NCBI GenBank assembly: GCA_017620395.1
Contig: JAFZQJ010000034.1
Location: 1,395 to 65,394 of the forward strand
Length of the DNA stretch: 64,000 nucleotides
Reading direction: 5' to 3'
DNA from: Clostridia bacterium
GTDB lineage: Bacteria > Bacillota > Clostridia > Oscillospirales > RGIG8002
Made by a program: the position numbers and the translations under genes. Positions 1,775-53,180 of this stretch are shown piece after piece. The stretch's first letter is position 1, and the number at the start of each line of letters is the position of its first letter. The notes beneath the pieces were generated by a model. The model made no database searches, was not told where the DNA came from, and saw nothing but the letters and a program-made list of their open reading frames with translations.

Positions 1775-2809
1775 ATGGAAAAGAGCTACAGCGAGAGCTA
1801 TAAAAACGCGGGAGTCGACATAACCGCGGGCTACGAGGCCGTCCGGCTTATGAAGGACAGCATCGCGCGCACGGTAACTCCGGGCGTGCTTTCCGGACTC
1901 GGCGGCTTCGGCGGCCTGTTTCAGCCCGACCTTTCGGGTATTAAGCGCCCCGTGCTCGTTTCCGGCACCGACGGAGTAGGCACGAAGCTGAAGCTGGCGT
2001 TCCTGCTGGATAAGCACGACACCGTCGGCATCGACTGCGTCGCGATGTGCGTCAACGACGTCATCTGCTGCGGGGCGAAGCCGCTGTTCTTCCTCGACTA
2101 TATCGCGCTCGGCAAAAACGTGCCGCAGCGCGTCGCGGATATCGTCGCCGGCGTCGCGGAGGGCTGCGTGCAGTCCGGCGCCGCGCTCATCGGAGGCGAG
2201 ACCGCCGAAATGCCCGGCTTTTACCCCGAGGACGAATACGACCTCGCGGGCTTCTGCGTCGGAGTCGCGGACGCGGATAGGATAATCGACAAAGAGCGCG
2301 TCGAAACCGGCGACGTTATCATCGCGCTGCCGTCTTCGGGCGTCCACTCGAACGGCTTTTCGCTCGTTCGCAAGGTCTTCGACGTCGAGCGCGCCGACCT
2401 CCGCGCCTACGCCGACCGCCTCGGCAAGCCGCTCGGCGAATGCCTGCTGACGCCTACGAAGATATACGTCAAGCCGATGCTTGCGCTGTTCGGCTCCGTC
2501 GACGTAAAGGGGGTTTCCCACATCACCGGCGGAGGCTTCTACGAGAATATCCCGCGCGCGCTGCCTGAGGGCAAATGCGCGAGGATAGACCGCGCTTCGC
2601 TGCGCGTTCCGCCCATATTCGGCCTCATCGCCGAGAAGGGCGGTATCCCCGAGCGCGATATGTTCAACACCTACAATATGGGCGTCGGCATGAGCGTCAT
2701 CGTTCCCGCCGCCCAGGCGGACGAGGCGCTGCGCGTGCTGAAAAACGCGGGCGAGGACGCGTACGTCATCGGCGAGGTCGCCGAGGGCGACGGCGTCGTT
2801 ATCGAATAA
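1775..2809 (+). CDS. purM: Phosphoribosylformylglycinamidine cyclo-ligase (AIR synthetase)
   Basis: 344 aa with GGFGGLF and GTDGVGTKL motifs. A GGAG SD lies 7 nt upstream. Confidence 0.95.
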
Positions 2810-2821
2810 GGAGAAACTGCT

Positions 2822-3409
2822 ATGATTGACGGAAGAGTCGCGGTGCTCGTCTCCGGAGGCGGCACGAACCTGCAGGCGCTGATAGACGCGCAGAAAAAGG
2901 GGATAATCAGGAGCGGCCGCATCGTGCTCGTCGTTTCCAGCAACCCCGACGCATACGCGCTTACGCGCGCGAAGAAGGCGGATATCCCGACCTTCGTCGC
3001 GGAGAAGGGCGCAAATTTCGAGAAGAGCATCATCGCCGCGATAGAGGAGGCGAAGGCGGATTTCATCGTCCTCGCCGGTTTCATGAAGATACTCAGCGCG
3101 GATTTCGTCCGGCGCTATGAGAGAAGGATAATCAACGTCCATCCGGCGCTCATCCCCTCCTTCTGCGGCGAGGGATTTTACGGCCTTAAGGTGCATCAGG
3201 CGGCGCTGGACTACGGCGTGAAGGTCACCGGCGCGACGGTGCATTTCGTCAACGAGATACCCGACGGCGGCGAAATAATCGCGCAGAAGGCGGTCGCGAT
3301 CCGCGAGGACGATACCGCCGAAACTTTGCAAAAACGTGTTATGCGGCTTGCGGAGCACAAGATACTTCCGCTCGCGCTTGAAAAATGCCTGAGTGAAGCC
3401 CGTCGCTGA
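2822..3409 (+). CDS. purN: Phosphoribosylglycinamide formyltransferase
   Basis: 195 aa with VLVSGGGTNLQALID and INVHPALIPSF motifs. Confidence 0.93.
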   Translation: MIDGRVAVLVSGGGTNLQALIDAQKKGIIRSGRIVLVVSSNPDAYALTRAKKADIPTFVAEKGANFEKSIIAAIEEAKADFIVLAGFMKILSADFVRRYERRIINVHPALIPSFCGEGFYGLKVHQAALDYGVKVTGATVHFVNEIPDGGEIIAQKAVAIREDDTAETLQKRVMRLAEHKILPLALEKCLSEARR

Positions 3410-3431
3410 CGGGGGAGAAAGGAGCAAAACA

Positions 3432-4115
3432 ATGGTTGAACTGAAAGAGTATTTATCGTCAAACGTCTATCCCGGCAGAGGGATAATCATCGGCAGAACT
3501 TCCGACGGCAGCGCCGCTGTCGCGTACTTCATCATGGGGCGCAGCGTCAACAGCCGCAACCGCGTCTTCGTCGCGGACGGCGACGGCATACGCACCGAGG
3601 CGAAGGATCCCTCCAAGCTTGTCGATCCGTCGCTCATCATATACTCGCCGGTCAGAGTCATCGGCGACAAGCTGATAGTTACGAACGGCGACCAGACCGA
3701 TACGATCTATGATTTCATAGCGGACGGCAAGACATTCGAGCAGGCGCTCGACACCCGCTGCTACGAGCCGGACGAGCCGAATTTCACCCCGCGCATCAGC
3801 GGCATGCTCGACGAAAGCGACGGCTCCTATAAGCTCAGCATCCTGCGCTGCAAAAAGGGTGAATGCGAGCGCGTTTACCGCGATTACGCGCCCGTTCCGG
3901 GCGCCGGACACATAATCCACACCTACGATTCGGACGGCTCGCCGATCCCCTCCTTCTCGGGAGATCCCGTCGAGGTTCGTATCCCCGACAGCATCGAGGA
4001 GTTCACCTCGATCCTCTGGGAGAATCTCAACGAAGACAACAAGGTCTCGCTTTTCGTCAGATACGTCAGTTCCAAAAACGGCATCGGCGAAACGAAGATC
4101 ATCAACAAGTATTGA
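3432..4115 (+). CDS. purO: IMP cyclohydrolase, archaeal PurO-type
   Basis: Motifs YPGRGIIIGR..VAY..GRS.NSRNR, NGDQTDTI and YEPDEPNFTPRISG resemble PurO as recalled from Methanocaldococcus. ATG 3432 follows a GGAG SD, and the track start at 3393 overlaps purN. Confidence 0.8.
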   Translation: MVELKEYLSSNVYPGRGIIIGRTSDGSAAVAYFIMGRSVNSRNRVFVADGDGIRTEAKDPSKLVDPSLIIYSPVRVIGDKLIVTNGDQTDTIYDFIADGKTFEQALDTRCYEPDEPNFTPRISGMLDESDGSYKLSILRCKKGECERVYRDYAPVPGAGHIIHTYDSDGSPIPSFSGDPVEVRIPDSIEEFTSILWENLNEDNKVSLFVRYVSSKNGIGETKIINKY

Positions 4116-4133
4116 TAAACGGAGGAAGCGAAA

Positions 4134-5306
4134 ATGAAAGAGTTCACCCTGAAATACGGCTGCAATCCCAACCAGTCGCCCGCGCGTATATTCGTCGAGA
4201 ACGGCGAGCTGCCCGTTGAAGTCCTCAACGGCAGACCCGGCTATATCAATTTCCTCGACGCGTTCAACTCCTGGCAGCTCGTCAAGGAGCTGAAGGCGGC
4301 GCTCGGGCTTCCCGCCGCGGCGTCCTTCAAGCACGTCAGCCCCGCCGGAGCGGCGGTCGGACTTCCGCTTTCCGACGTGCTGCGTCAGATATACTTCACC
4401 GGCGACGGCGGGCTTTCGCCGCTTGCCTGCGCCTACGCCAGAGCGCGCGGCGCGGACAGAATGTCCTCCTTCGGCGACTGGATCGCGCTTTCCGACGTCT
4501 GCGACCTTTCCACCGCGAAGCTTATTCAGCACGAAGTATCCGACGGCGTGATCGCCCCCGGCTACGACGACGACGCGCTCGAGGTGCTGAAATCCAAGCG
4601 CAAGGGCAACTACAATATCGTGAAGATCGACCCCGAATACGTTCCTCCGAAAACGGAGGTCAAGCAGGTCTTCGGCGTTTCCTTCGAGCAGGGGAGAAAC
4701 GACCTCGAGATAAGCGAAAAGCTGCTCGAAAACGTAGTCACCGCCAACAAAGAGTTCCCCGAGAGCGCGAAGCGCGACCTAATCCTCGCGCTCATCACGC
4801 TGAAATATACCCAGTCAAACTCCGTCTGCTACGCGAAGGACGGTCAGGCGATCGGCGTAGGCGCCGGTCAGCAGTCGCGCATCCACTGCACCCGTCTCGC
4901 CGGCACGAAGGCGGATAACTGGCATCTGCGCCAGCATCCGAAGGTGCTCGCTCTGCCGTTCCGCGAGGATATAGCCCGCCCGAACAGGGACAACGCCATC
5001 GACGTTTACATCTCCGAGTTTTACGAAGACGTCATCGGCGACGGGGTCTGGCAGGAGTGCTTCACCCGCAAGCCCGAGCCGCTTACCCCCGCGGAGAAGC
5101 GCGAGTTTCTCGACGGCGTGAAGGGCGTTTCGCTCGGCAGCGACGCGTTCTTCCCCTTCGGCGACAACATCGAGCGCGCCGTCAAGAGCGGCGTGCAGTA
5201 CATCTCCGAGCCCGGCGGCTCGATCCGCGACGAACAGGTCATCGAGACCTGCGACCGCTTCGGCGTGACGATGGCGTTCAGCGGCGTCCGCCTGTTCCAC
5301 CACTGA
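4134..5306 (+). CDS. purH: AICAR formyltransferase (PurH transformylase domain only, no MGS-like IMPCH domain)
   Basis: 390 aa with KHVSPAGAA, GVGAGQQSRI and SDAFFPF motifs of the AICARFT half of PurH. It sits next to the purO-type gene. Confidence 0.88.
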   Translation: MKEFTLKYGCNPNQSPARIFVENGELPVEVLNGRPGYINFLDAFNSWQLVKELKAALGLPAAASFKHVSPAGAAVGLPLSDVLRQIYFTGDGGLSPLACAYARARGADRMSSFGDWIALSDVCDLSTAKLIQHEVSDGVIAPGYDDDALEVLKSKRKGNYNIVKIDPEYVPPKTEVKQVFGVSFEQGRNDLEISEKLLENVVTANKEFPESAKRDLILALITLKYTQSNSVCYAKDGQAIGVGAGQQSRIHCTRLAGTKADNWHLRQHPKVLALPFREDIARPNRDNAIDVYISEFYEDVIGDGVWQECFTRKPEPLTPAEKREFLDGVKGVSLGSDAFFPFGDNIERAVKSGVQYISEPGGSIRDEQVIETCDRFGVTMAFSGVRLFHH

Positions 5307-5331
5307 TAAACCAACCAAAGGAGAGCCTGCG

Positions 5332-6597
5332 ATGAAGGTGCTCGTTGTCGGAAGCGGCGGCAGAGAACACGCCGTGATAAAGAAGCTGCGCGAAAGCGCG
5401 CTTGTCGATAAGATATACGCGCTGCCCGGAAACGGCGGCATCGCGCAGGACGCCGAATGCGTCCCGATAGGCGCGATGGAGCTGGAGAAGATCCGCGACT
5501 TCGCGGTCGAAAAGGGGATAGGCCTCGCCGTCGTGACGCCGGACGACCCGCTTGTCGCCGGCGCCGTCGACCTGCTCGAGGCCGCGGGAGTGCCCGCCTT
5601 CGGGCCCTGCAAAGCCGCCGCCGCGATAGAGGGCAGCAAGGCGTTCGCCAAGGAGCTGATGAAGAAATACGGCATCCCGACGGCGCGCTACGAGGTGTTC
5701 ACCGATTGCGAAAAGGCGCTCGAATACGCCGCCTCCGCGCCAATGCCCTTCGTCGTCAAGGCGGACGGGCTCGCGCTCGGCAAGGGCGTCGTGATCCCCG
5801 CGACGAGGGAAGAGGCGCTCGCCGCCGTCCGCTCGATGATGTCGGGCGAGGCGTTCGGCGACAGCGGCAGAACGGTCGTCATCGAGGAGTTCCTCGAGGG
5901 GCCGGAGGTCTCCGTTCTCGCCTTCACCGACGGCAAAACGATCGTGCCGATGGTGTCCTCGATGGATCACAAACGCGCCCTCGACGGCGACAAGGGCCTG
6001 AACACCGGCGGTATGGGCACGGTCGCGCCCAACCCCTACTACACCGACGCCGTCGCGAAGGAGTGCATGGAACGCATATTCCTGCCCACCGTCGCGGCGA
6101 TGAACGCCGAAGGCCGCCCATTCAAGGGCTGCCTCTATTTCGGGCTCATGATAACCGAAAACGGCCCGAAGGTCATCGAATACAACTGCCGCTTCGGCGA
6201 TCCCGAAACGCAGGTCGTGCTCCCGCTGCTGGAGGGCGACCTTGCGCGGATAATGCTCGCCGTCCGTAACGGCACGCTCGCGGATGAAAGAGTATCCTTT
6301 TCGGATAAGCGCGCCGCCTGCGTGATCCTCGCCTCCGGCGGCTACCCGAAGGCGTACAAAAAGGGCTGCCCGATCACGATAGGCGACGTCGGCGATGCCG
6401 TCGTCTACCACGCCGGCACGAAGCTGACGGAGGACGGACTCGTTACCTCCGGCGGCAGAGTCATGGGCGTGACTGCCGTCGGCGAAACGCTGCGGCAGGC
6501 GCTCGACAGGGCTTACGCCGCCGCGGATAATATCAGCTTTGAAAATATGTATAAGCGGAGCGACATAGGCGCGAGAGCGCTTAAGGCCGCCGAATAA
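5332..6597 (+). CDS. purD: Phosphoribosylamine-glycine ligase
   Basis: 421 aa. The start MKVLVVGSGGREHA and the ATP-grasp core are typical of PurD. Confidence 0.95.
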   Translation: MKVLVVGSGGREHAVIKKLRESALVDKIYALPGNGGIAQDAECVPIGAMELEKIRDFAVEKGIGLAVVTPDDPLVAGAVDLLEAAGVPAFGPCKAAAAIEGSKAFAKELMKKYGIPTARYEVFTDCEKALEYAASAPMPFVVKADGLALGKGVVIPATREEALAAVRSMMSGEAFGDSGRTVVIEEFLEGPEVSVLAFTDGKTIVPMVSSMDHKRALDGDKGLNTGGMGTVAPNPYYTDAVAKECMERIFLPTVAAMNAEGRPFKGCLYFGLMITENGPKVIEYNCRFGDPETQVVLPLLEGDLARIMLAVRNGTLADERVSFSDKRAACVILASGGYPKAYKKGCPITIGDVGDAVVYHAGTKLTEDGLVTSGGRVMGVTAVGETLRQALDRAYAAADNISFENMYKRSDIGARALKAAE

Positions 6598-31077: not shown

Positions 31078-31211
31078 GTCATCCTGATCGGCGGCAAAGC
31101 CGTATTTGTACGGGCGATCTGATCGCCCGTCATTCCGAGCGTATGTGAGGAATCCCCCAAGTGCCGCAGCACGTTTGTCATCCTGAGCGAGCGAAGCGAG
31201 TCGAAGGATCC
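31078..31211. repeat. Three direct copies of a REP-like unit (gtcat[ct]c[ct]ga..g(g)a(a/t)tcc)
   Basis: The units start at 31078, 31129 and 31177. A related inverted pair lies at 37878-37964. Confidence 0.75.
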
Positions 31212-31234
31212 TGAAGGTAACGGTACTGAAAAAG

Positions 31235-31298
31235 AAAAAGTGTGTATTCGGAACAGGAACCTCCGTCCAAACCCGTTTTTTCCGAATATACACTTTTT
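31235..31298. repeat. 19-bp inverted repeat (1 mismatch) with a 26-nt spacer, overlapping the sigma-gene promoter -35
   Basis: AAAAAGTGTGTATTCGGAA ... TTCCGAATATACACTTTTT. Confidence 0.7.
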
Positions 31299-33173: not shown

Positions 33174-34220
33174 ATGAAAAACCTCACGAAAAAACTGCTC
33201 GCGGCGCTTCTGACGCTGCTGATGGTCGCTGCACTGATGCCGGTGACGGCTTCGGCGGATCAGAACGCGATCATCATCGTCGAGCTGAACGAGCCGTATT
33301 ACGGTGAAAACCTCAACGAGATACTTCCCGAGATCAAAATGGAGGTGTCGTATCCCTTCATCGACGGCTACGCGTTCGTCGTCTATTACGCCCACACCTC
33401 GGATGAGGACGCCTACGCCGCCGCTGAGGCTTTGGCGACGAACTCTCGCGTCAAGAGCGCGACCTACTGCCCCGGTAACCCGACCGAAAACACCTCCCGC
33501 GTCAGGTTCCATATCACGATCTCGGAGGATTATTTCGGCGAGGATTATTACACGCCGATAACTTCGGTCGAGCTGGGGAAGCTTTTCCCGAACAGGGTTA
33601 TCAAGCGTGCCCGCAAATGGGGTTTCCGCAATTTCGATATTTTCTTCGATATCGGCTCGTCGGAAGACTGGTACGAAATCTATGACGAGTTAAAATCCAA
33701 CCCGTTCATTCTGTCGTTCCACACCTTCGACATGGGCGGTTCCGGCAAAGCCGTTACGATCGGCACTCTCGCGGTGACGACGAAGGCGGAGCATACCGAA
33801 AATGAGATCATCGGCCTGTATGCGGACTTGGGAGCATATGAAGTTGTCGAATCATACTCCGCGCATTATTTCAAGTTCAACATTCGTGACAGATCGCTCA
33901 GAGGAACGCTCGAGGCGGTCAAAGCGCTGAAGAACGATCCCGACGTCGCAAACGTCGTATGGACAGATACGATTGGCTTTCCGACCGTAATGCCGAAGGA
34001 GCTTGAAGAAGCCGACTTCCTTGCGCCGGAACGCCCGGAGGCGACGGTGGAGACCGCCCTCGGCGCGTTAAGGATAGCCGCGAAGCTCGGTGAAGCGAAA
34101 AACGGCGTTTACGATTACAAGCTCGCCGACGCGATCTGGCAGTTCGACTGCGACGGCGACAAGGCGATCACCGTTTCCGACGCGCTTATCCTCCTTCGCA
34201 AAGCCGCGAAGCTTGCGTAA
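33174..34220 (+). CDS. Secreted protein with three tandem ~80-aa repeats and a C-terminal dockerin-like module
   Basis: Has a signal peptide (..PVTASADQ) and ends DCDGDKAITVSDALILLRKAAKLA-stop. The first F-hand is degenerate. Confidence 0.75.
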   Translation: MKNLTKKLLAALLTLLMVAALMPVTASADQNAIIIVELNEPYYGENLNEILPEIKMEVSYPFIDGYAFVVYYAHTSDEDAYAAAEALATNSRVKSATYCPGNPTENTSRVRFHITISEDYFGEDYYTPITSVELGKLFPNRVIKRARKWGFRNFDIFFDIGSSEDWYEIYDELKSNPFILSFHTFDMGGSGKAVTIGTLAVTTKAEHTENEIIGLYADLGAYEVVESYSAHYFKFNIRDRSLRGTLEAVKALKNDPDVANVVWTDTIGFPTVMPKELEEADFLAPERPEATVETALGALRIAAKLGEAKNGVYDYKLADAIWQFDCDGDKAITVSDALILLRKAAKLA

Positions 34221-34287
34221 TACTCCATACCTTAATCCACGGTAATTCAGATTATCAATACCCGATTAACAATAAGGAGGAACTATT

Positions 34288-35886
34288 ATGAAAAAACTTA
34301 CCAAAATCATTTCCGCAATGCTGACGGCGGTAATGCTGTTCAGTCTGTTCGCGGTGCCTGCCGCCGCGTACGCGGACGGCGGCGTCTGCGGCGAAAATCT
34401 CACGTGGACGCTTGAAAACGGCGTCCTCACCATCAGCGGCGCGGGTCCTATGGAGAACTACCTGAAGTACAACGCGCATGACACGTACTCCGTAGAGCGC
34501 CCCGATCTGGACCGCCTTGCGCCGTGGGGAACGGATATCAAAAACGTCATTATCGAGGACGGCGTAACGACTATCGGCGACTTTGCGTTCTATAACTGCA
34601 AGCAGATAGAGAGCATAGAGATCCCCGCGAGCGTCAAGGTCATAGGCAAGAGCGCGTTTGCGGACGCGGTCCTGCAGACGCTCGTACTGCCGGAAGGCGT
34701 TGAAGAAGTGAAAGAATACGCGTTTTTCGACTGTGATCTCAAGAGCAACGATTTCCGTATGCCCGACAGTCTCAGGATAATAGGCGAAAAAGCTTTTCAG
34801 TGCTATATGGGTATGATTGAGATCGGCGAGGGCGTTGTGGATATAGGCAAGGAAGCTTTCGGCAACAACGTGGTAATGAATATCCCTGAGAGCGTACAGC
34901 ATATCGGCAAAGACGCGTTCAAGATAACTTCTTTCTACAAAGACGAGAGCAACTGGAGAATGGACGCGCTCTATATCGGCAAGTGGCTGATAAAGGTCAA
35001 GGAGAATACCAAACTCGAGTTCTTCGTCGTCAAACGCGGCACGGAGCACATCGCGGATTATGCTTTTGAAAATTGCAAGTCGCTGAAAGACGACATAATA
35101 CTTCCGAAGAGCTTGAAGTCCATAGGAAGAAGCGCGTTCCAGGCCTGCAACAATCTCGAAGCGCTCGACATACCGGAAGGAGTGACGGATATCGGCCCCG
35201 GCGCGTTTTCCGGCTGCAAGGGCCTGACCGAGCTCAAACTTCCTGAGTCGATAACCGAGATAGGCGATCAAATGTTATCCGGCTTGAGCTTTGAGCAATT
35301 CGAGATTTCGGATAACGTGGAACGTATAGGCGAAGGCGCTTTCCTGAGTTGTATGCAGCTTAAATCGATCACGATCCCGTCAGGCGTGAAAAGAATAGAG
35401 CCGTGGACGTTTATGAGCTGCACGTCGCTCGAGGAAGTGAACCTCCCCGAAGGCCTTGAAAGCATCGGCGATTTCGCTTTCCTGGCCTGTGCCTCTCTGC
35501 GCAGGATCGTTATTCCCAGAAGCGTGACGAGCATCGGCATCGGTCTTTTCTATTTCAACGTGCCGACGCCCACGGATATAGTTATGGCGGTATACGAGGG
35601 CTCGTATGCGCAGACCTACGCCGAAGAAAACGGCATAGCTTATGAGATAATCGGCGAAGAAAAACCGATAGACGAGAATAACGGGGAACTTGTCGGCGAT
35701 ATGGACGGCGACGGTGAGATCACCGTTTCCGACGCGCTACGCGCGCTGCGTATCGCCGCGAAGCTTGAGGCCCCCGTTGCGGCGAAGGGCACGAGAAGCG
35801 CGCTCCTCGGCGACGTTGACGGCGACGGAGCCGTTACGGTCGCGGACGCACTTGCGATCCTCCGCAAAGCCGCGAAGCTTGCGTAA
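34288..35886 (+). CDS. Secreted BspA-type leucine-rich-repeat protein with C-terminal dockerin
   Basis: Has a signal peptide and repeated ..IP.SV..IG..AF..C..L motifs (LRR_5-like). Two F-hand segments, GDMDGDGEITVSDALRALRIAAKL and GDVDGDGAVTVADALAILRKAAKLA-stop, span nt 35695-35883. Confidence 0.85.
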   Translation: MKKLTKIISAMLTAVMLFSLFAVPAAAYADGGVCGENLTWTLENGVLTISGAGPMENYLKYNAHDTYSVERPDLDRLAPWGTDIKNVIIEDGVTTIGDFAFYNCKQIESIEIPASVKVIGKSAFADAVLQTLVLPEGVEEVKEYAFFDCDLKSNDFRMPDSLRIIGEKAFQCYMGMIEIGEGVVDIGKEAFGNNVVMNIPESVQHIGKDAFKITSFYKDESNWRMDALYIGKWLIKVKENTKLEFFVVKRGTEHIADYAFENCKSLKDDIILPKSLKSIGRSAFQACNNLEALDIPEGVTDIGPGAFSGCKGLTELKLPESITEIGDQMLSGLSFEQFEISDNVERIGEGAFLSCMQLKSITIPSGVKRIEPWTFMSCTSLEEVNLPEGLESIGDFAFLACASLRRIVIPRSVTSIGIGLFYFNVPTPTDIVMAVYEGSYAQTYAEENGIAYEIIGEEKPIDENNGELVGDMDGDGEITVSDALRALRIAAKLEAPVAAKGTRSALLGDVDGDGAVTVADALAILRKAAKLA

Positions 35887-35934
35887 CAATCCATATGTTT
35901 GAATTGAACAGGGAGGGGCAAAGGAGGAGTTACA

Positions 35935-36768
35935 ATGAAAAGAGTTGGCAAAACTATTGCGCTATTTTTGGTGTTGGCCATTTTAGCAGGGGCGGTATCT
36001 TTCGTAAGTTTTGCGCAGAAGGACTCAGACGATGTGTATTATCCTGATGATTATCCGTGGCTTACGCTCGGGGAAGTATCAAAAACCGCAACTGACGTTA
36101 TTCGTCTTCGTGTCGGTGAAACGTGTGAAATAGCAATAATAAACCTTGAAGCCGGCATAATGGATTTCGGTGGGACGACTTTAGCGCAGTATTGGCTTGG
36201 AGAAAAAACAGACGGAAACAGGATCAATATGTTTACTCTATGGAGAGTGAAGGATTCTTCTATTATCGATTTTACAGAAGAATACAAATCGGCGCATCCG
36301 TCGGAATATGAAACCCTTCCTATGCTGGAGCAAGATGCGCGATATCTCGAGCGATATGATATGTGTGCTGGCTTTATACCATATCTCAAGTACGCCTTTA
36401 CGGAATCGGATATAGATGAATCTGGTTATGAATATGGCGATATTGAGAATGGTAACTGGGGACAGCGCAGAGCCGTTATAGTCGGCAAAAAAGCAGGAAC
36501 AACGACTATTGAAGTTGCGAAAGGCGGATGGGGAATAACATGTCCGGCAAGAGGGACGCTTACGGTGATTTGCTATGATGAAACTGTTGGCGACGTTGAC
36601 GGCGATGGGGAAGTCACTGTAGCAGACGCGCTTTCCGTGTTGCGCGTAGCAGCGAAGCTTGCGCCGCAGACGAAGAGCACCGGTTCAGTTTTCGATTTCG
36701 ACGGCGACGGAGCCGTCACAGTCGCGGACGCGCTTGCGATACTGCGCGTCGCCGCGAAGCTTGCGTAA
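35935..36768 (+). CDS. Secreted protein (AT-rich body, Ig-like patches) with C-terminal dockerin
   Basis: Has a signal peptide. The dockerin spans nt 36589-36765 (GDVDGDGEVTVADALSVLRVAAKLA .. FDFDGDGAVTVADALAILRVAAKLA-stop). Confidence 0.75.
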   Translation: MKRVGKTIALFLVLAILAGAVSFVSFAQKDSDDVYYPDDYPWLTLGEVSKTATDVIRLRVGETCEIAIINLEAGIMDFGGTTLAQYWLGEKTDGNRINMFTLWRVKDSSIIDFTEEYKSAHPSEYETLPMLEQDARYLERYDMCAGFIPYLKYAFTESDIDESGYEYGDIENGNWGQRRAVIVGKKAGTTTIEVAKGGWGITCPARGTLTVICYDETVGDVDGDGEVTVADALSVLRVAAKLAPQTKSTGSVFDFDGDGAVTVADALAILRVAAKLA

Positions 36769-36857: not shown

Positions 36858-37562
36858 TCACGCGTTGACTCTTCCGCGCCTCTCGCGGTACTGCTTCGGG
36901 GTCACGCCGACGGCCTTGTGAAACACCTTCGTGAAATAGCTCTGGTCGTCGAAGCCGCACGCGCCCGCGATATCCACTATGCGAACGGTATTGTCGAGCA
37001 GCAGCTGTTTGCTTCGCTCGATCCGCACCTCGCGCACGTAGTCGGTCAAACTCATGCCGATCTCCTCCTTAAAGACGGTGGAGATATACGACCGCGAGAG
37101 GAAGACCTTTTTCGCCACGTCGTCCAGCGATATTTTTTTCGCGTAGTTGGCGTTGACGTATTCCGTTATTTTATAAACGGCGGTCGAGTGCCTTATCCGC
37201 GGCAGGTCGAAGGAGTAGTCGATGAACCTGTGCAGCACCCCCGTGACCCACTCGTTCATATCCTCGAAGGAGGTGAAGCGGTCTATGTCGCCGAGATACT
37301 TCGTGTTCAGCGCCATGACCTCGCGCATGTCCGCGCCGGAGTCTATGACCGCGCGGGAGAGCACGACCACCAGCTCTATCATCCGCGCCCTTATCTCCGC
37401 GAGGTCGAAGTCGTTGGAAAAGTATATGTGTCCGATCAGCTCGTTCAGCGCGTTCTGCGCGCCGAGCTTGTCGTGAGTGAGTATCATCGAGCGCAGCGCC
37501 TTTTCCTTTTCGATGGGGTAGTCGACGGCGTATCCGCCGCCGGCGTGCGGAGCTTCACGCAT
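36858..37562 (-). CDS. AraC-family transcriptional regulator
   Basis: 234 aa starting at ATG 37562 (GAGGAGG SD). Has a C-terminal double HTH (..LDDVAKKVFLSRSYISTVFK.., ..IAGACGFDDQSYFTKVFHK..). The track's 80-codon N-terminal extension is rejected. Confidence 0.85.
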   Translation of the reverse strand: MREAPHAGGGYAVDYPIEKEKALRSMILTHDKLGAQNALNELIGHIYFSNDFDLAEIRARMIELVVVLSRAVIDSGADMREVMALNTKYLGDIDRFTSFEDMNEWVTGVLHRFIDYSFDLPRIRHSTAVYKITEYVNANYAKKISLDDVAKKVFLSRSYISTVFKEEIGMSLTDYVREVRIERSKQLLLDNTVRIVDIAGACGFDDQSYFTKVFHKAVGVTPKQYRERRGRVNA

Positions 37563-37743
37563 TTTTCCGCCTCCTCTCGTGATTTTTGTAATTATATCAG
37601 ATTTTTTGGAAAATTTCAAGGTGCGGGAGGTAAAAAGGCGTTCGTCGGATATTTCATATAATATGATATATTTATGTTGCAAACGGCCGCGGCGTATGTT
37701 ATAATCGGCTTGTATAATCGCCGTTGCGGCGTGGAGGAACGCT

Positions 37744-40062
37744 ATGGAAAAATCACTGAGAATAAAAATAATATCGCTGCTTGCCGCGCTGACGCTGCTC
37801 ATAGCGGCTGTGTGCGTGCCGTCCGCGGGCGCGGAGCGCTATGAAGCTCCCGCGGCCGTGAAAGAAACGGCGTCCGGACATCCTGAACGAAGCGAAGGAT
37901 CCCCCGGATATTCCGACCTTTTGCGTGAGGAAGGGGATTCCTCGCCCGTCGGGCTCGGAATGACAGACCTCGCCCCGACCGAAGACAGCGCTTTCATAGG
38001 CGAGGCGACCGTGCCCGTGTTTGAAACGGCGGTGCGCGGCGAATCCGACGTCTCGGGCGCGACGCCGTGGCAGTATAACTACACCGACGAAAGCTGGACG
38101 GCTTACGAAGCCGCGCTCGCCTCCGCGCAGACCGCGGATGAACGCGCCGCCGCGTTCGACCTGCTTGCGCCTCGCAACACCGAGGCCGTCACCGCCGGCT
38201 TTTTCAGCGGCTGGAACACATCCGACGTCAACGCCGTCGTAACCGCGAACAGCGGCCGCCTCTGCGACTCCATCGGCGACAGTCTGAACACCAACGGCGT
38301 ATGGAACAACGGCGATTTCTCCCGCAACACGGTCTTTGATGCGGGCGACGGCTGGTTCTCCATGACCGCGGCTGCCGACTTCGCGGGCAAGGCGATGGGC
38401 TGGAAGAATATGGACCGCAGCGCGACGCTGAATCCCAACAAGCAGAGCGCCGGCGCGGCGTACCCCGAGATGGACGTCTCCGGCCTTTCCTACGCCGAGG
38501 GCATACGCTTCAAGCTTGAGGTCTACGGTCCCGAATACGCCGTGCTCGGAACCGACGCCGTCGAGCGCATACTGATCGGTCTTTCCAACTGCGACACCAT
38601 GGTGCGCGAACAGTACGCGCTGAACGTCAAACCCTCGCAGGTCGGCTCCGACGGATATATCAACATCCCGTTCAGCTGCTTTGTCAACGCGTGGTGGTGC
38701 CGCGCTTTCTCGCAGTCCGAGCTCGAGGACGTCATCGTCTTCATAATCGAAGCCTACGGCGAAGCCGAGGGCACGACCGTGAAGGTTTCAGACCTGCACG
38801 GTTATATAACCGTCGCTCCCGTTATCCCGCCGGAGCCGCGCGAGCCGGGCTTCGCGGAGCCGAGGGCGAGCGAATACGTCGGTTCGACCTTCCGCGCCAC
38901 CGACTTCCGCATTATAAAATTCGACGAGATGTTCCCCGAGGGCTTCGCCGGCGACACGAGCTGGGATCCGATGGGCATCGACGATAACGGCATAATATAC
39001 TTCGGCTACACCGGACGCCGTACCGACCTGATCCCCGACGAGGTGATAGAGGATTTCGCCGTCTTCTCGTATGATCCGGAGACTGACGTCGTCAAGTTCC
39101 TCGGCACCCTCATTGAGGCGAGCAAGGCGTGCGGCAACTACGTTTACGGCGAGGAAATCCCGAAGGGACACACGAAGTTCTACTGTATTGATAACAAGAT
39201 GTATCTTGCGAGCCAGAGCTTCCACGACTACAAGGACAAGATCGACGGCGCGGACGGCTATATGACCAAGCGCGGCGCCCATCTGTATATGTACGACATC
39301 GAGAAGGAAGCGCTCATCGACCTTTCCGCGTCCTTCCCGGGCGGCGTATGGTGCGAGCACCAGGGAGTCGTCGCGCTGAACTATATGCCGGAACTCGGCA
39401 AGCTCGTCGGCTTCACGCATCCGCTTGCGGACCTCGTCTTCTACGATCTCGCGACCGGCACGGTAGACCGTTACGTCAACGGCATCCCGTGGTCGCTCGG
39501 CAATCCGCTGAGCCGCGAGATAATCGTCAGCGGCGACAGAGTGTATCTCTACCGCGGCGTTGAGGATCCCGGGCAGCGCGCCGAGATCCAGTGGCCGGTC
39601 TACTGCTATGACTACGGCGAAAACCGCCTCTATCAGACGGGAGACACGATGAAGGGCGGCTTCTGGAACGGTCAGGCGACGACCTCGGACGGCAAAACGA
39701 CCTACATCAGCGGCTGCTGCGGATACCTTTACAAGATGGATATGGAGACCGGCAGAGTGACCTTCCTGCGCGATATGGACCTCGACGGCGAGAACGTCAT
39801 CGGTTATACCTATTCGATATCGATGTCGCCGGACGAAACGAAGCTGTTCTATATCCCGACGGCGCGAAAGCCCGGCCGCATTTACGAATACGATATCGCG
39901 ACGAACACACTCGCAGTTGTCGCGGACGTTCAGCAGAGCGTCTACTGCGGCAGCAATATCGTGACGAAGGATAACTGGTACTACTTCACCCGCTTCGGCG
40001 AGAACGGCACGTGGGAGGGCGCTCCGAGCGTCGTCGCCTACAAGCTCGAGCCGTGGGAATGA
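37744..40062 (+). CDS. Secreted 772-aa protein: signal peptide, repeat-derived linker, CBM-like middle region, beta-propeller-like C-terminal half
   Basis: Signal peptide ends ..SAGA. The C-terminal half has recurrent hydrophobic-Y/F-x-D/G blade-like strings (IIYFGYTG, KMYLASQ, HLYMYDIE, LVFYDLATG, RVYLYRG, VYCYDYG, YLYKMDMETG, RIYEYDIATN, NWYYFTRF). Confidence 0.7.
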   Translation: MEKSLRIKIISLLAALTLLIAAVCVPSAGAERYEAPAAVKETASGHPERSEGSPGYSDLLREEGDSSPVGLGMTDLAPTEDSAFIGEATVPVFETAVRGESDVSGATPWQYNYTDESWTAYEAALASAQTADERAAAFDLLAPRNTEAVTAGFFSGWNTSDVNAVVTANSGRLCDSIGDSLNTNGVWNNGDFSRNTVFDAGDGWFSMTAAADFAGKAMGWKNMDRSATLNPNKQSAGAAYPEMDVSGLSYAEGIRFKLEVYGPEYAVLGTDAVERILIGLSNCDTMVREQYALNVKPSQVGSDGYINIPFSCFVNAWWCRAFSQSELEDVIVFIIEAYGEAEGTTVKVSDLHGYITVAPVIPPEPREPGFAEPRASEYVGSTFRATDFRIIKFDEMFPEGFAGDTSWDPMGIDDNGIIYFGYTGRRTDLIPDEVIEDFAVFSYDPETDVVKFLGTLIEASKACGNYVYGEEIPKGHTKFYCIDNKMYLASQSFHDYKDKIDGADGYMTKRGAHLYMYDIEKEALIDLSASFPGGVWCEHQGVVALNYMPELGKLVGFTHPLADLVFYDLATGTVDRYVNGIPWSLGNPLSREIIVSGDRVYLYRGVEDPGQRAEIQWPVYCYDYGENRLYQTGDTMKGGFWNGQATTSDGKTTYISGCCGYLYKMDMETGRVTFLRDMDLDGENVIGYTYSISMSPDETKLFYIPTARKPGRIYEYDIATNTLAVVADVQQSVYCGSNIVTKDNWYYFTRFGENGTWEGAPSVVAYKLEPWE
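37878..37964. repeat. Inverted pair of REP-like units embedded in-frame (87 nt) in the 37744-40062 CDS
   Basis: acatcctgaacgaagcgaaggatccccc ... ggggattcctcgcccgtcgggctcggaatgac. Same family as 31078-31211. Confidence 0.75.
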
Positions 40063-51032: not shown

Positions 51033-53180
51033 GTGAAAAGAATAACTGCAATCATAATGTGCGTTGTATTTTTGATGTCGGTCGGTGTCTTGAATGTGAG
51101 CGCATCATATATTGATGAGCGTTGGCAATGGTCAAATGACGTTCAACAGGAACGTTGTACATATCGTGTTTGGCATGAGGCGTACGAAAGACTTGGTATA
51201 AGCTTACCGGACACGTGGGGGAATGCTGCTACTTGGTATGATAATGCGCCATATGACGGATATCCAGTTGATAATAACCCATCTGCAAATTCTATTGCTT
51301 GCTGGGATGATGGGGGTTGGGGACATGTCGCATATGTAACAAGCGTTGATTCGGAGTGGGTTTATTATAGACATGCGGGGTTTGACCCCAGTGATAGGTA
51401 TACTGGCTATTGGTACAATGACGATAAAAGAAGAATAGACAATATGGGATGGGATTTCGAGGGATATATTCACCTCACCTCTTTAGATCTCGGCTCTGAT
51501 TTCTACGCGTTCATAATCAAGCAGGATTCGTGGAAGCACCTTGCGGCCGAAAACGGCAATGTTCAGTTACCGTCGACCGGAAATAACAGCTCCGATCCAA
51601 AGCAGATATGGCACTTTATCAGGATGTCTGACGGCTCTTACAAAATCGTCAACGAGTTTTACGATATGTGTATGGATGCGGCGAATTTCGGCACAAGCAA
51701 CGGTACCAACGTCGGATTGTGTACGAGCAACGATTCTACCGCGCAAAGATGGTTCATTTCAACTATGGGCAACGGATACGCGCTTTCGCCGGCATATACG
51801 AGTATGGTTATAGACGTCACCGGCGGCGTGAACGATCCCGGTACCAATGTGCAGCTTTGGCAGTCCGGAAACACGTCGGCTCAGGCTTTTTCGATATACA
51901 AACTCACGGAGGACGGCGTTACCTATTCCAAGCCCGCGAAGCCGTCCGCGGTGACGGTGAACGCTTCGGTTTCCGCCAATAAGGTTTTGAGTATCTCGTG
52001 GAGTCAGTCGCCTCTGAAGGGATCGTTTGACGCGCGCGCATACGACGTTTATATCTATAAAGACAGCGCGAGCAGCACGCCGATCCATACAAAAATGAGT
52101 TTGAGCGCCACTTCATATACATACAGCCTCCCTTCTGAAGGAACGTATTACGTTAAGGTTGCCGCCGTCAACACGAAGTATTACGGTTGGTATACGTTCT
52201 CCTCGACGGTAAAGGTGGAAACGAAGAGCGACTTGCTAGGAGATATGGACGGCGACGCTTCTATAACCGTTTCGGACGCGCTCGCCGCGCTGAGGATTGC
52301 CGCAAGGCTTGCGAGCGCCACGAGCAGCGTGAAGAAGATAGCCGACGTGGATTTCGACGGAACGATAACGGTTTCCGACGCGCTTGCGATACTGCGCGTC
52401 GCCGCGAGGCTTGCCGGTACGAAGACGCTCACCGTACAGTCGCTGAGCAGCTGTACGCTGTATCCCGAATGCTATAAGAACTATGCCGTTTCTTCCAACT
52501 ATACGGACGCCCGCGTCGAGTGGTTGAGCAGCGACGCGTCCGTCGCAACCGTCGGCAGCAACGGCAAGGTAACGGCTAAAAGCGCCGGAACGGCGACGAT
52601 AACCGCAAAGGTTTCCGTTATCGGTCAGCAGAAATCCGTTTCGTATACCGTCACGGTCAAGAACCCGAGCGTTGTTTTGGCGCCTGCTTCTCAGAGCACG
52701 TCTTATGACGCGTATTCTAACAACAGAGTCATTATCAGCGGTCATATCGCTTACAAGTGCCCGCTTCCTTCCGTGACGACGGACGTCAACGAGGCATATT
52801 GCGGCGACAGCCGCGTGAGCACTTCAAGTATTACAAAGGAGATAACGTCCGGTGATGGTAAGTTCAGCGGCGAATACTTCTATTCGTATCAGCCCGGCAC
52901 GATAAAGATCAAGTATTCATTCTCCGTCGCCGGCAAGACTTACAGCAGCACTTATACCTGCAACCTCACGCTGACGCGCACCAATCCGGATATGGGGCAG
53001 TATATAAGAAGCTCGACTTCGACGTCTTCGACGAATCTGGGTATGGTACCCGCGAATACGACTTATGTGATAACGCAGGTCGCGGTCACCGGAACGGTAG
53101 GAGAGTCGGGATGCCAGGTCTGGGGATACACGACCTATGGCGGCGTATCCGGATGGACTTTGATCGAGTATTGGCAGTAA
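51033..53180 (+). CDS. Secreted multidomain cell-wall hydrolase: CHAP + ricin-type lectin + Fn3-like + internal dockerin + Big_2-like + SH3-like C-terminus
   Basis: GTG start after an AAGGAGAG SD, then a signal peptide. CHAP Cys/His context (..ERCTYRVW.., GNAATWYD, GWGHVAYVTSV). QxW-type lectin repeats (KQIWHF, AQRWFI, VQLWQS). Dockerin at nt 52239-52418. Big_2 string (SSDASVATVGSNGKVTAKSAGTATITA). Confidence 0.8.
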   Translation: MKRITAIIMCVVFLMSVGVLNVSASYIDERWQWSNDVQQERCTYRVWHEAYERLGISLPDTWGNAATWYDNAPYDGYPVDNNPSANSIACWDDGGWGHVAYVTSVDSEWVYYRHAGFDPSDRYTGYWYNDDKRRIDNMGWDFEGYIHLTSLDLGSDFYAFIIKQDSWKHLAAENGNVQLPSTGNNSSDPKQIWHFIRMSDGSYKIVNEFYDMCMDAANFGTSNGTNVGLCTSNDSTAQRWFISTMGNGYALSPAYTSMVIDVTGGVNDPGTNVQLWQSGNTSAQAFSIYKLTEDGVTYSKPAKPSAVTVNASVSANKVLSISWSQSPLKGSFDARAYDVYIYKDSASSTPIHTKMSLSATSYTYSLPSEGTYYVKVAAVNTKYYGWYTFSSTVKVETKSDLLGDMDGDASITVSDALAALRIAARLASATSSVKKIADVDFDGTITVSDALAILRVAARLAGTKTLTVQSLSSCTLYPECYKNYAVSSNYTDARVEWLSSDASVATVGSNGKVTAKSAGTATITAKVSVIGQQKSVSYTVTVKNPSVVLAPASQSTSYDAYSNNRVIISGHIAYKCPLPSVTTDVNEAYCGDSRVSTSSITKEITSGDGKFSGEYFYSYQPGTIKIKYSFSVAGKTYSSTYTCNLTLTRTNPDMGQYIRSSTSTSSTNLGMVPANTTYVITQVAVTGTVGESGCQVWGYTTYGGVSGWTLIEYWQ

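Follow-up and report, generated by a model that had tools for sequence, protein, structure and literature searches.

The 64-kb stretch of uncultured Clostridia DNA analyzed here (contig JAFZQJ010000034.1; hereafter the window) contains, at 37744-40062 on the plus strand, an open reading frame (ORF), taken from the ORF listing, for a secreted protein of 772 amino acids whose function is unassigned. Close to its 5' end lies a complete palindromic repeat dimer (YGTCAT...ATGACR; 37876-37965, plus strand), 90 nt that make up codons 45-74 and would be translated as GHPERSEGSPGYSDLLREEGDSSPVGLGMT. Related units occur between genes of the window and in other genomes, and among orthologues of the gene the dimer is present in some and absent from others. 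We conclude that the repeat dimer very probably was inserted in frame, was tolerated in a linker and then drifted in a nearly neutral fashion.

The start codon of the host gene is preceded by GGAGG at 37733-37737, 6 nt before the ATG, and by a promoter-like site at 37677-37705. The N-terminus of the product, MEKSLRIKIISLLAALTLLIAAVCVPSAGA|ER, shows a charged stretch, a hydrophobic stretch and an AXA layout, and codons 1-30 probably encode a Sec signal peptide with its predicted cleavage site (AGA|ER) at codon 30/31. The signal peptide is followed by a variable linker that extends to about residue 106 and then by two folded regions. Searches of the protein gave no Pfam domain, no NCBIfam family above cut-off and no sequence relative in the PDB. 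An AlphaFold2 model from a shallow alignment of eight sequences has a mean predicted local distance difference test score (pLDDT) of 55.9. It places a helix, the signal peptide, at residues 3-22, has pLDDT <50 over residues 18-106 (block means 21-31 for residues 21-100), shows no secondary structure at residues 23-102 and begins its first ordered segment at about residue 110. Residues 45-74, those of the element, fall in the middle of this low-pLDDT stretch, in which E, A, S, G and P are abundant. The disordered linker proposed in the initial annotation of this locus agrees with the model, shallow as it is, which only suggests disorder.

Structure of the In-Gene Dimer and Related Copies in the Window

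The dimer can be delimited as 37877-37964 (88 nt, from GTC tag to GTC tag) or, with the usual T/A flanks, as 37876-37965. Its left unit, GACATCCTGAACGAAGCGAAGGATC, occupies 37877-37901 on the plus strand and reaches 37905 when its CCCC tail is counted. A 27-nt spacer, ggatattccgaccttttgcgtgaggaa (37906-37932, plus strand), leads to the right unit, the canonical GTCATTCCGAGCCCGACGGGCGAGGAATC, which lies on the minus strand at 37936-37964 or, with its CCC tail, from 37933. Read on the plus strand, the right unit is GGG-GATTCCTCGCCCGTCGGGCTCGGAATGAC, ending at 37964, the latter sequence being the reverse complement of GTCATTCCGAGCCCGACGGGCGAGGAATC. The GTC tags of both hairpin units face outward. 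The two arms differ in subtype. The right one is ATTCC/GGAAT; the left one, ATCCT/AGGAT, has decayed in the window, where its tag GTC has become GAC (reading GGAC) and its GAGC has become GAAC. Of the three frames of the 90-nt element, only that of the gene is free of stop codons. The predicted tryptic peptides of the translated region are SEGSPGYSDLLR and EEGDSSPVGLGMTDLAPTEDSAFIGEATVPVFETAVR. The initial annotation had described a forward and an inverted copy of one repeat, in frame, and the sequence is as it was quoted there. It had also given the element as 87 nt, or 29 codons, at 37878-37964, just after the signal peptide: a multiple of three in an open frame is indeed found, but that length is one base short at the 5' end, and the element starts 15 codons past the predicted signal-peptidase site.

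Are these arms recognizable as repeat units on statistical grounds? We searched the window with the degenerate pattern TCATYCYGANC-N(2-30)-RRGGAWYC and obtained three matches (31130, 31178 and, on the minus strand, 37936) versus 0.00 expected in shuffled sequence. A covariance model, R1, was built from 31 different 25-mers, all of them from other organisms or phyla as a guard against circularity, and was run with filters off. Exactly four matches with E<=0.011 are found in the 64 kb, and the next has E=0.77. The best of them is the in-gene right arm (37932-37968, minus strand; 31.0 bits, E=9e-6); it is followed by two intergenic matches on the plus strand, at 31173-31214 (30.4 bits, E=1.4e-5) and 31125-31158 (25.9 bits, E=1.9e-4), and by the in-gene left arm (37880-37901, plus strand; 19.0 bits, E=0.011). 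Both arms are members of the family, and their similarity to the intergenic units, as claimed at the outset, is significant under a model trained on foreign copies only. Rfam 15 has no match at gathering score in the window and none at the units in 18 loci.

The intergenic units lie on the plus strand at 31078-31211, downstream of pheT. Three copies had been annotated there, and two are intact. Unit 2, GTCATTCCGAGCGTATGTGAGGAATCCCCC (31129-31158), has the subtype ATTCC/GGAAT and the CCCC of the in-gene right arm, and unit 3, GTCATCCTGAGCGAGCGAAGCGAGTCGAAGGATCC (31177-31211), the subtype ATCCT/AGGAT of the left arm. The copy at 31078 (unit 1, 31078-31128) is decayed: it keeps the 5' half, GTCATCCTGATCGGCGGCAAAGCCG, has lost the 3' half and gives no R1 match. 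By alignment it is the orthologue of an intact long-loop unit at 4663-4711 of contig L006, one of the contigs with an orthologue of the 772-aa gene. The pheT-downstream spacer thus contains members of the family in the window as well as, at the orthologous position, in L006, which is without the in-gene dimer. Unit 2 has no counterpart in the L006 spacer and is missing from L006, and the L006 units at 4870 (minus strand) and 12312 have none in the window. An identical 34-mer, GTCATCCTGAGCGAGCGAAGCGAGTCGAAGGATC, stands at 31177-31210 of the window, in unit 3, and at 12312-12345 of L006, a different locus about 40 nt past the stop codon of the 772-aa-gene orthologue; it suggests recent movement or conversion. 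As such differences show, in a sample of the source lineage made up of the window and about 90 kb of related contigs, the family has been active in this lineage.

Occurrence of the Unit in Other Genomes

We scanned one genome per species (596 Gb in all) with the pattern GTCATYCYGAGC-N(2-32)-GARGRATC and retrieved at least 120 stretches. About 1,000 chance matches to this pattern are estimated in 596 Gb, and the number of matches is thus no proof; we base family status on the covariation in the stem, the bias of the flanking bases, a preferred unit length and the arrangement of units in dimers. By their record titles the matches listed span about 20 phylum-level groups, among them Nitrospirota, Bacillota, Bacteroidota, Chloroflexota, Acidobacteriota, Planctomycetota, Verrucomicrobiota, Pseudomonadota, Campylobacterota and groups of the candidate phyla radiation. 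The 25-nt unit is also present in at least 120 viral contigs of IMG/VR, and its core, GTCATYCYGAGCGNAGCGARGRATC, is nearly the same across these listed groups and the viral contigs.

Each unit combines an unpaired GTC tag and a C-rich tail with an outer stem A-T-Y-C-Y/R-G-R-A-T, a tandem G-A/A-G mismatch and an inner G-C/C-G stem; the inner stem is capped by a GNA triloop or by a longer variable hairpin. We examined 184 units from 127 loci among the matches listed. Their length is 25 nt in 82 cases, the commonest sequences being GTCATCCTGAGCGCAGCGAAGGATC and close variants; the 3-nt GNA loop is the most frequent, and in other units the loop encloses an inner hairpin that may reach about 30 nt. 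At the two variable positions of the stem, Watson-Crick pairs (C-G or T-A) are seen in 181 and 183 of the 184 units, and the 368 stem pairs include 0 G-T and 4 C-A. The bases next to the unit are also biased (T at -1 in 70%, T at +1 in 76% and C at +2 in 47%).

Several other identities were considered for the units and set aside. A small ribozyme or K-turn, suggested by CUGA...GAA and by a GUC reminiscent of a hammerhead-like core, does not fit in spacing, and Rfam is empty. Selection on the stems at the RNA level was rejected as there is no wobble signature for RNA or for one strand, and folding z-scores are weak. The inverted arms recall a classical miniature inverted-repeat transposable element, a cut-and-paste derivative of an insertion sequence, but the direct repeats that a target-site duplication leaves at the ends are lacking in 78 of 86 dimers. 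No protein family recurs near the units in bacterial loci, as judged by an all-versus-all BLASTP of 4,840 ORFs from 240 loci, 8-kb pieces that give this comparison weak power; clustering of the ORFs found recurrence just among related phage genes of the viral contigs. The unit sequence was not found as text in the relevant literature.

Units are often paired. With relaxed matching we counted 130 pairs, of which 86 have their tags outward, 22 inward and 22 in the same orientation. The 86 outward dimers, all in other genomes, have a median length of 91 nt and most commonly spacers of 10-40 nt. With its tags outward and its 88-90 nt, the in-gene element is therefore a typical dimer. No anchored direct repeat flanks 78 of the 86, and target-site duplication was dropped as a feature of the family; the GACCT found around the right arm in the window is not taken as evidence. 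At 37915-37925, within the spacer, the window reads GACCTTTTGCG, and at 37966-37973, just past the right arm, GACCTCGC; both resemble GACCTTCCGCG, which precedes CCGACCGAA in orthologues without the element. This likeness could be the remnant target duplication of a single-arm insertion, or chance.

Two separate insertions of single units at neighboring sites could also have produced the two arms, and we regard this course of events as rather improbable when set beside the arrival of one preformed dimer. The arms differ both in subtype and in the intergenic unit that they match; the codons GAC CTT TTG CGT (DLLR) of the spacer resemble the GAC CTT CCG CGC (DLPR) that stand before PTE in L005; and GACCT recurs right after the right arm, as if that arm alone (about 48 nt) had been inserted. 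However, dimers of other genomes often combine two subtypes (those at loci L023 and L042 are examples), the outward arrangement predominates (86 of 130 pairs), both arms are present in all four carriers described below and, with target duplications lacking from 78 of 86 dimers, the recurrence of GACCT may be chance.

Two further arrangements of the unit were seen. In an uncultured Helicobacter sp. (locus L113), two ORFs of 640 and 1,012 codons (3-1922 and 1926-4961) are filled with periodic ...CAGAATGAC and ...CGGAATGAC pieces, which are 3' halves of units read as QND or RND, and embed whole units in frame as well; the second of these ORFs begins with iron-sulfur domains of ferredoxin / NADH-G type. 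In a Dehalococcoidia chromosome (OZ244885.1; locus L045, 6247-7141), a segment of about 329 bp is repeated in tandem, and every copy of it contains a single inverted dimer whose two units are identical (GTCATTCCGAGCGACAGCCGAGGAATC) and are separated by about 110 nt.

Presence and Absence in Orthologues

A search of 5.8 billion proteins returned seven full-length orthologues of the 772-aa protein, 74-95% identical to it, of which six could be traced to contigs (L001-L006, encoding P0001-P0006). Synteny is kept in every traced case, the gene being flanked upstream by one for an AraC-type regulator and downstream by one for a Met-gamma-lyase. The element is carried by the window, L001/P0001, L002/P0002 and L003/P0003. 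There is no trace of either arm in L004/P0004, L005/P0005 and L006/P0006, which are about 20 codons shorter at this place. These findings bear out the initial proposal that an intergenic-type repeat was inserted into a coding region, as does the R1 similarity; orthologues were expected to lack exactly the ~29 codons, and of this the absence is seen and the exact length is not. In the alignment, 12-17 residues lie between AERYEAxx and DLPRP in the non-carriers, and the window would be left with about 7 if its 30 codons were removed. When metagenomes were scanned with the first 360 residues of the protein, the only relatives obtained were 51-64% identical and matched from residue 75 onward; none was closer.

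We calculated a tree from 406 ungapped C-terminal columns and rooted it with six shorter homologues. The window and P0001 group with P0004 (98% bootstrap), and P0002 and P0003 with P0005-P0007 (90%). Identities in a sliding window give another picture for the 5' part of the gene. Over alignment columns 31-150 every carrier is closest to the other carriers, the window being 78-88% identical to L002 and L003 and 55-75% identical to L004-L006. Its closest relative is L005 at columns 151-240 and L004 at columns 241-330 and 481-570. By these identities the 772-aa gene is a recombination mosaic among related genomes, and simple parsimony on the gene tree was dropped for this reason. Since the carriers share one 5' haplotype, a single insertion followed by recombination is enough to explain their distribution.

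Alternatively, the dimer may be older, present in the common ancestor of the seven orthologues and later lost precisely, or nearly so, in the lineages of L004, L005 and L006. Carriers and non-carriers are interleaved on the C-terminal tree, as this history would have it, and palindromes are generally prone to deletion. We nevertheless think it unlikely, because the sliding-window identities show a mosaic in which carriers are mutually closest around the element, and because three non-carriers have kept no vestige of either arm.

Sequence Change within the Element

Within the element the four carriers are 78-83% identical in nucleotides and 67-70% in amino acids. The changed codons are nonsynonymous and synonymous in ratios of 9:3, 10:4 and 10:3, so that 9-10 of 12-14 alter the residue. 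Normal protein-level conservation, which the initial annotation had held to be incompatible with insertion, is thus not seen. The hairpins have decayed in different ways. Both arms are present in all four carriers and the right one is still canonical in the window and L002, and in L001 its end has changed from ATGAC to ACGGC. The left arm still reads TGTCAG/CGTCAG...CTGAGCGAAGCGAAGG in L002/L003, more canonical than in the window, and has lost two stem pairs in these two genomes without compensation. R1 detects neither arm in L001 and L003, where both fall below the threshold of E=0.1. No frameshift and no stop codon occurs in the element in the four carriers. The pattern is what one would expect if the element were under selection for its reading frame alone and otherwise in near-neutral drift, and we consider this probable.

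The consensus of the four carriers, (Y)GTCATCCTGARCGAAGCGAAGGATCCCCC ... GGGGATTCCTCGCCCGTCGGGCTCGGAATGACA, is nearer to the family consensus than are most of the present copies, the window copy being equally near. Because the family is dispersed, because its copies are shared at the pheT-downstream spacer and because the carrier consensus approaches that of the family, we take the segment to be inserted and not ancestral coding sequence.

It was also suggested initially that the hairpin might affect translation or stability of the mRNA, and the element could be kept for such an action in mRNA or DNA, be it slowed translation past the signal peptide, transcript stability, or gyrase or protein binding. 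Folding of a 99-nt stretch of RNA around the element yields -38 to -47 kcal/mol in all four carriers, the canonical right arm of the window and L002 is in line with a function, and repetitive extragenic palindromic (REP) elements elsewhere are reported to influence mRNA stability and supercoiling, as discussed by Di Nocera et al. (2013; PMC3733652). The z-scores versus shuffled sequences, however, are just -1.5 to -2.8, a modest hairpin potential; the stem changes are not compensatory, recognizable units have been lost in L001 and L003, and three orthologues manage without the element. Its position 132 nt downstream of the start codon is too far to occlude the ribosome-binding site and makes an effect on initiation unlikely. 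We find no support for the suggestion and judge such a function very improbable; the weak z-scores and the 132-nt distance favor a neutral, tolerated insertion over a regulatory hairpin. A chance resemblance of an ordinary coding linker to the intergenic repeat, which the left arm taken alone (19 bits, E=0.011) might allow, can practically be dismissed, since the right arm is the best match in the window (E=9e-6), the left arm is found at a distance of 30 nt, inverted as is typical of the family, with about 2e-5 matches of at least 19 bits expected within 120 nt of a given site (scaled from the window-wide E-value), the left arm is more canonical in L002 and L003, and the shuffles give 0.00 pattern matches.

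Other Features of the Locus

A conserved inverted repeat, AAGTGTGTATTCGGA ... TCCGAATAYACACTT (31237-31297 in the window, 4797-4853 in L006), lies between the intergenic units and a promoter-like site that belongs to the next gene. Its arms are kept in the window and L006 despite differing sequence between them, and the next gene encodes a sigma-70 region-2 protein in L006. Rfam gives just weak, unrelated matches in this part of L006 (4600-4960).

The AraC-type regulator that diverges from the 772-aa gene (36858-37802, minus strand) is a short protein with a helix-turn-helix only (234-236 aa) in L001 and L006 and apparently in the window too; in L003, L004 and L005 it has 375-401 aa and a PocR sensor domain. 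A 76-nt direct-repeat family with 7 copies (34145-36768 and 52241-52418) corresponds to dockerin type I repeats, which sit at the C-termini of several neighboring secreted proteins. These repeats point to a cellulosome-type lifestyle of the source organism.

Discussion

How did the dimer come to lie in the gene? By the mechanism that we infer, it would have inserted into the DNA for the N-terminal linker, on one 5' haplotype of the 772-aa gene that is now common to four related uncultured Clostridia genomes. It may have survived because it added a whole number of codons and was read in the only one of three frames that is free of stops. The site, too, would have been permissive: a poorly conserved and probably disordered stretch of variable length that links the signal peptide to the first folded domain. 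From then on, the hairpins as well as the 30 encoded residues would have drifted almost neutrally, only the ORF being kept.

Several observations count against this history. The non-carriers are shorter by about 60 nt and not by 88-90 nt. No exact empty site was found, the linker being unalignable in the DNA and codon alignments of the seven orthologues, so that we infer where the inserted DNA begins and ends and whether a deletion went with it. The carriers are polyphyletic on the C-terminal tree. ERSEG, REEGDSS and GLG are identical in the four carriers; with so few sequences some constraint on the peptide is possible. The reading of the segment as translated depends on the conserved reading frame of the putative signal peptide, and that of the linker as disordered on a weak structural model.

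For the 772-aa gene the consequence is small, amounting to 30 extra drifting residues in a flexible linker. The case is a dated example, in which the element is lacking from three orthologues, has decayed in a different way in each of its four carriers and lies on a 5' segment apparently spread by recombination. It also matters for annotation, where such segments yield spurious "low-complexity" inserts and spurious short ORFs. Less expected is the near-identity of the 25-nt unit over about 20 phyla among the matches listed and in viral contigs, which raises the wider question of what moves or maintains so similar a hairpin in all of them. It is tempting, if speculative, to see here one hairpin family, a broader, distinct and as yet undescribed branch of CGTC-tagged repeats, that owes its spread to a mobilizing or maintaining activity common to most bacteria or to transfer across phyla, perhaps by phages; we hold this to be possible and would not put it higher.

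Relation to Known Palindromic Repeats

Bertels and Rainey (in 2011), Nunvar (in 2010) and Ton-Hoang (in 2012) reportedly described REP, BIME and REPIN elements together with RAYT (TnpA-REP) transposases. The units studied here resemble these elements in being short, imperfect hairpins whose 5' tetranucleotide is unpaired and conserved, in forming inverted doublets able to fold into a long hairpin, in their position downstream of genes and in the lack of target duplications. They differ in the tag, which is GTC(A)/YGTC in place of the GTAG of REP/RAYT systems, and in being nearly the same across phyla, whereas a REP family is usually confined to one species or genus. No RAYT gene was found near any copy in the 240 loci sampled, a sample of weak power.

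A second precedent is provided by the Rickettsia palindromic elements (RPEs), which Ogata et al. are said to have found, in 2000 and 2002, inserted in frame in protein-coding genes. RPE-1 is a long type of RPE, and to our knowledge RPEs are restricted to Rickettsia. The in-gene dimer shares with them the character of a selfish palindromic repeat, found both between genes and in frame within functional genes, where the added peptide is tolerated. Unlike them, it is a single 90-nt dimer in a Clostridia genome and occupies an N-terminal linker, not a folded domain. In-frame insertion of RPEs is well documented, the first-described ones being about 150 bp long, with 44 cases of copies in genes of R. 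conorii, as given in a review (PMC10969869).

Another in-frame case of the present family is found in a metagenome-assembled genome of the Rickettsiales (JAJTHB010000013.1; locus L035), where a 60-nt dimer at 4083-4142 lies in the B5 domain of pheT and adds 20 residues, VIPNAQAEGSKDSSPMARND; at this point the PheT of the window shows a gap of 18 residues. One more dimer follows at 5296-5375, just past the pheT stop codon. The pheT case belongs to the same family and is independent of that in the 772-aa gene.

The closest known group is the superfamily of short palindromic repeats with a CGTC tag, often TGTC (variants TGTC, CCTC), described by Di Nocera et al. (2013; BMC Genomics 14:522, PMC3733652). 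The superfamily includes RPE-4 and RPE-6 of Rickettsia conorii and dRS3 of Neisseria. Its members occur in 5 phyla, mainly in Alphaproteobacteria, and have an uninterrupted stem of 8-9 bp starting A-T, a loop of 4-5 nt and a 3-nt tail with consensus CCA; they form mainly one type of inverted dimer, are mostly intergenic and have no known dedicated transposase. The intragenic copies, of which more than half are dimers or groups, include singles as well as dimers in frame; the stretches that they encode are 20-30 residues long, VIPAKAGI...IPAFAGMT and SFPRKRES...DSRFRGND being examples (PMC3733652). The published peptides (VIPAKAGI, SFPRKRES, AGMT, DSRFRGND) back-translate to GTCATTCC...GGAATC-type units.

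The similarities to our units are numerous. The unpaired YGTC tag recurs in the window as cCGTCAT (31129), tTGTCAT (31177) and cTGTCAT (37964, minus strand), and in the left in-gene arm it reads GGAC in the window, TGTC in L002 and CGTC in L003. In all units the stem starts A-T, reading ATTCC.../...GGAAT, and a short C-rich tail follows, but stem and tail agree with those of the superfamily only in part, as set out below. Dimers with outward tags predominate, an orientation that the published VIPAKAGI...IPAFAGMT also implies; copies are mostly intergenic with a minority in frame, as in the superfamily, without target duplication in most dimers and, in the 240 loci of weak power, without a recurrent gene that might be a dedicated transposase; and the reading-frame signatures (...GLGMT in the window, VIP...ARND in L035) are alike. 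Perfect-stem units similar to CGTC-1 even co-occur with the present variant in L023, L065 and L073. There are clear differences as well. The stem here is broken by a tandem G-A/A-G mismatch (ATYCY-GA-GC...GC-GA-RGRAT), each arm having 9 positions of which 6 and 7 are mismatched, which leaves 5+2 Watson-Crick pairs in place of 8-9 bp. The loop is a 3-nt GNA or reaches about 30 nt and is not 4-5 nt long; the tail is CTC in the pan-bacterial sample and CCC/CCCC in the window, not CCA; and the unit is found in about 20 phylum-level groups among the matches listed, compared with 5 phyla. Compared by description and not by consensus bases, the units here are best seen as a related variant and not as proven members of CGTC-1 to CGTC-4.

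The dimer in the 772-aa gene is the same kind of event that has long been known from Rickettsia and other bacteria. The capture of palindromic repeats in frame is best known from Rickettsia, Opitutus and some Proteobacteria, and it is here found in Clostridia of the gut or rumen as well.

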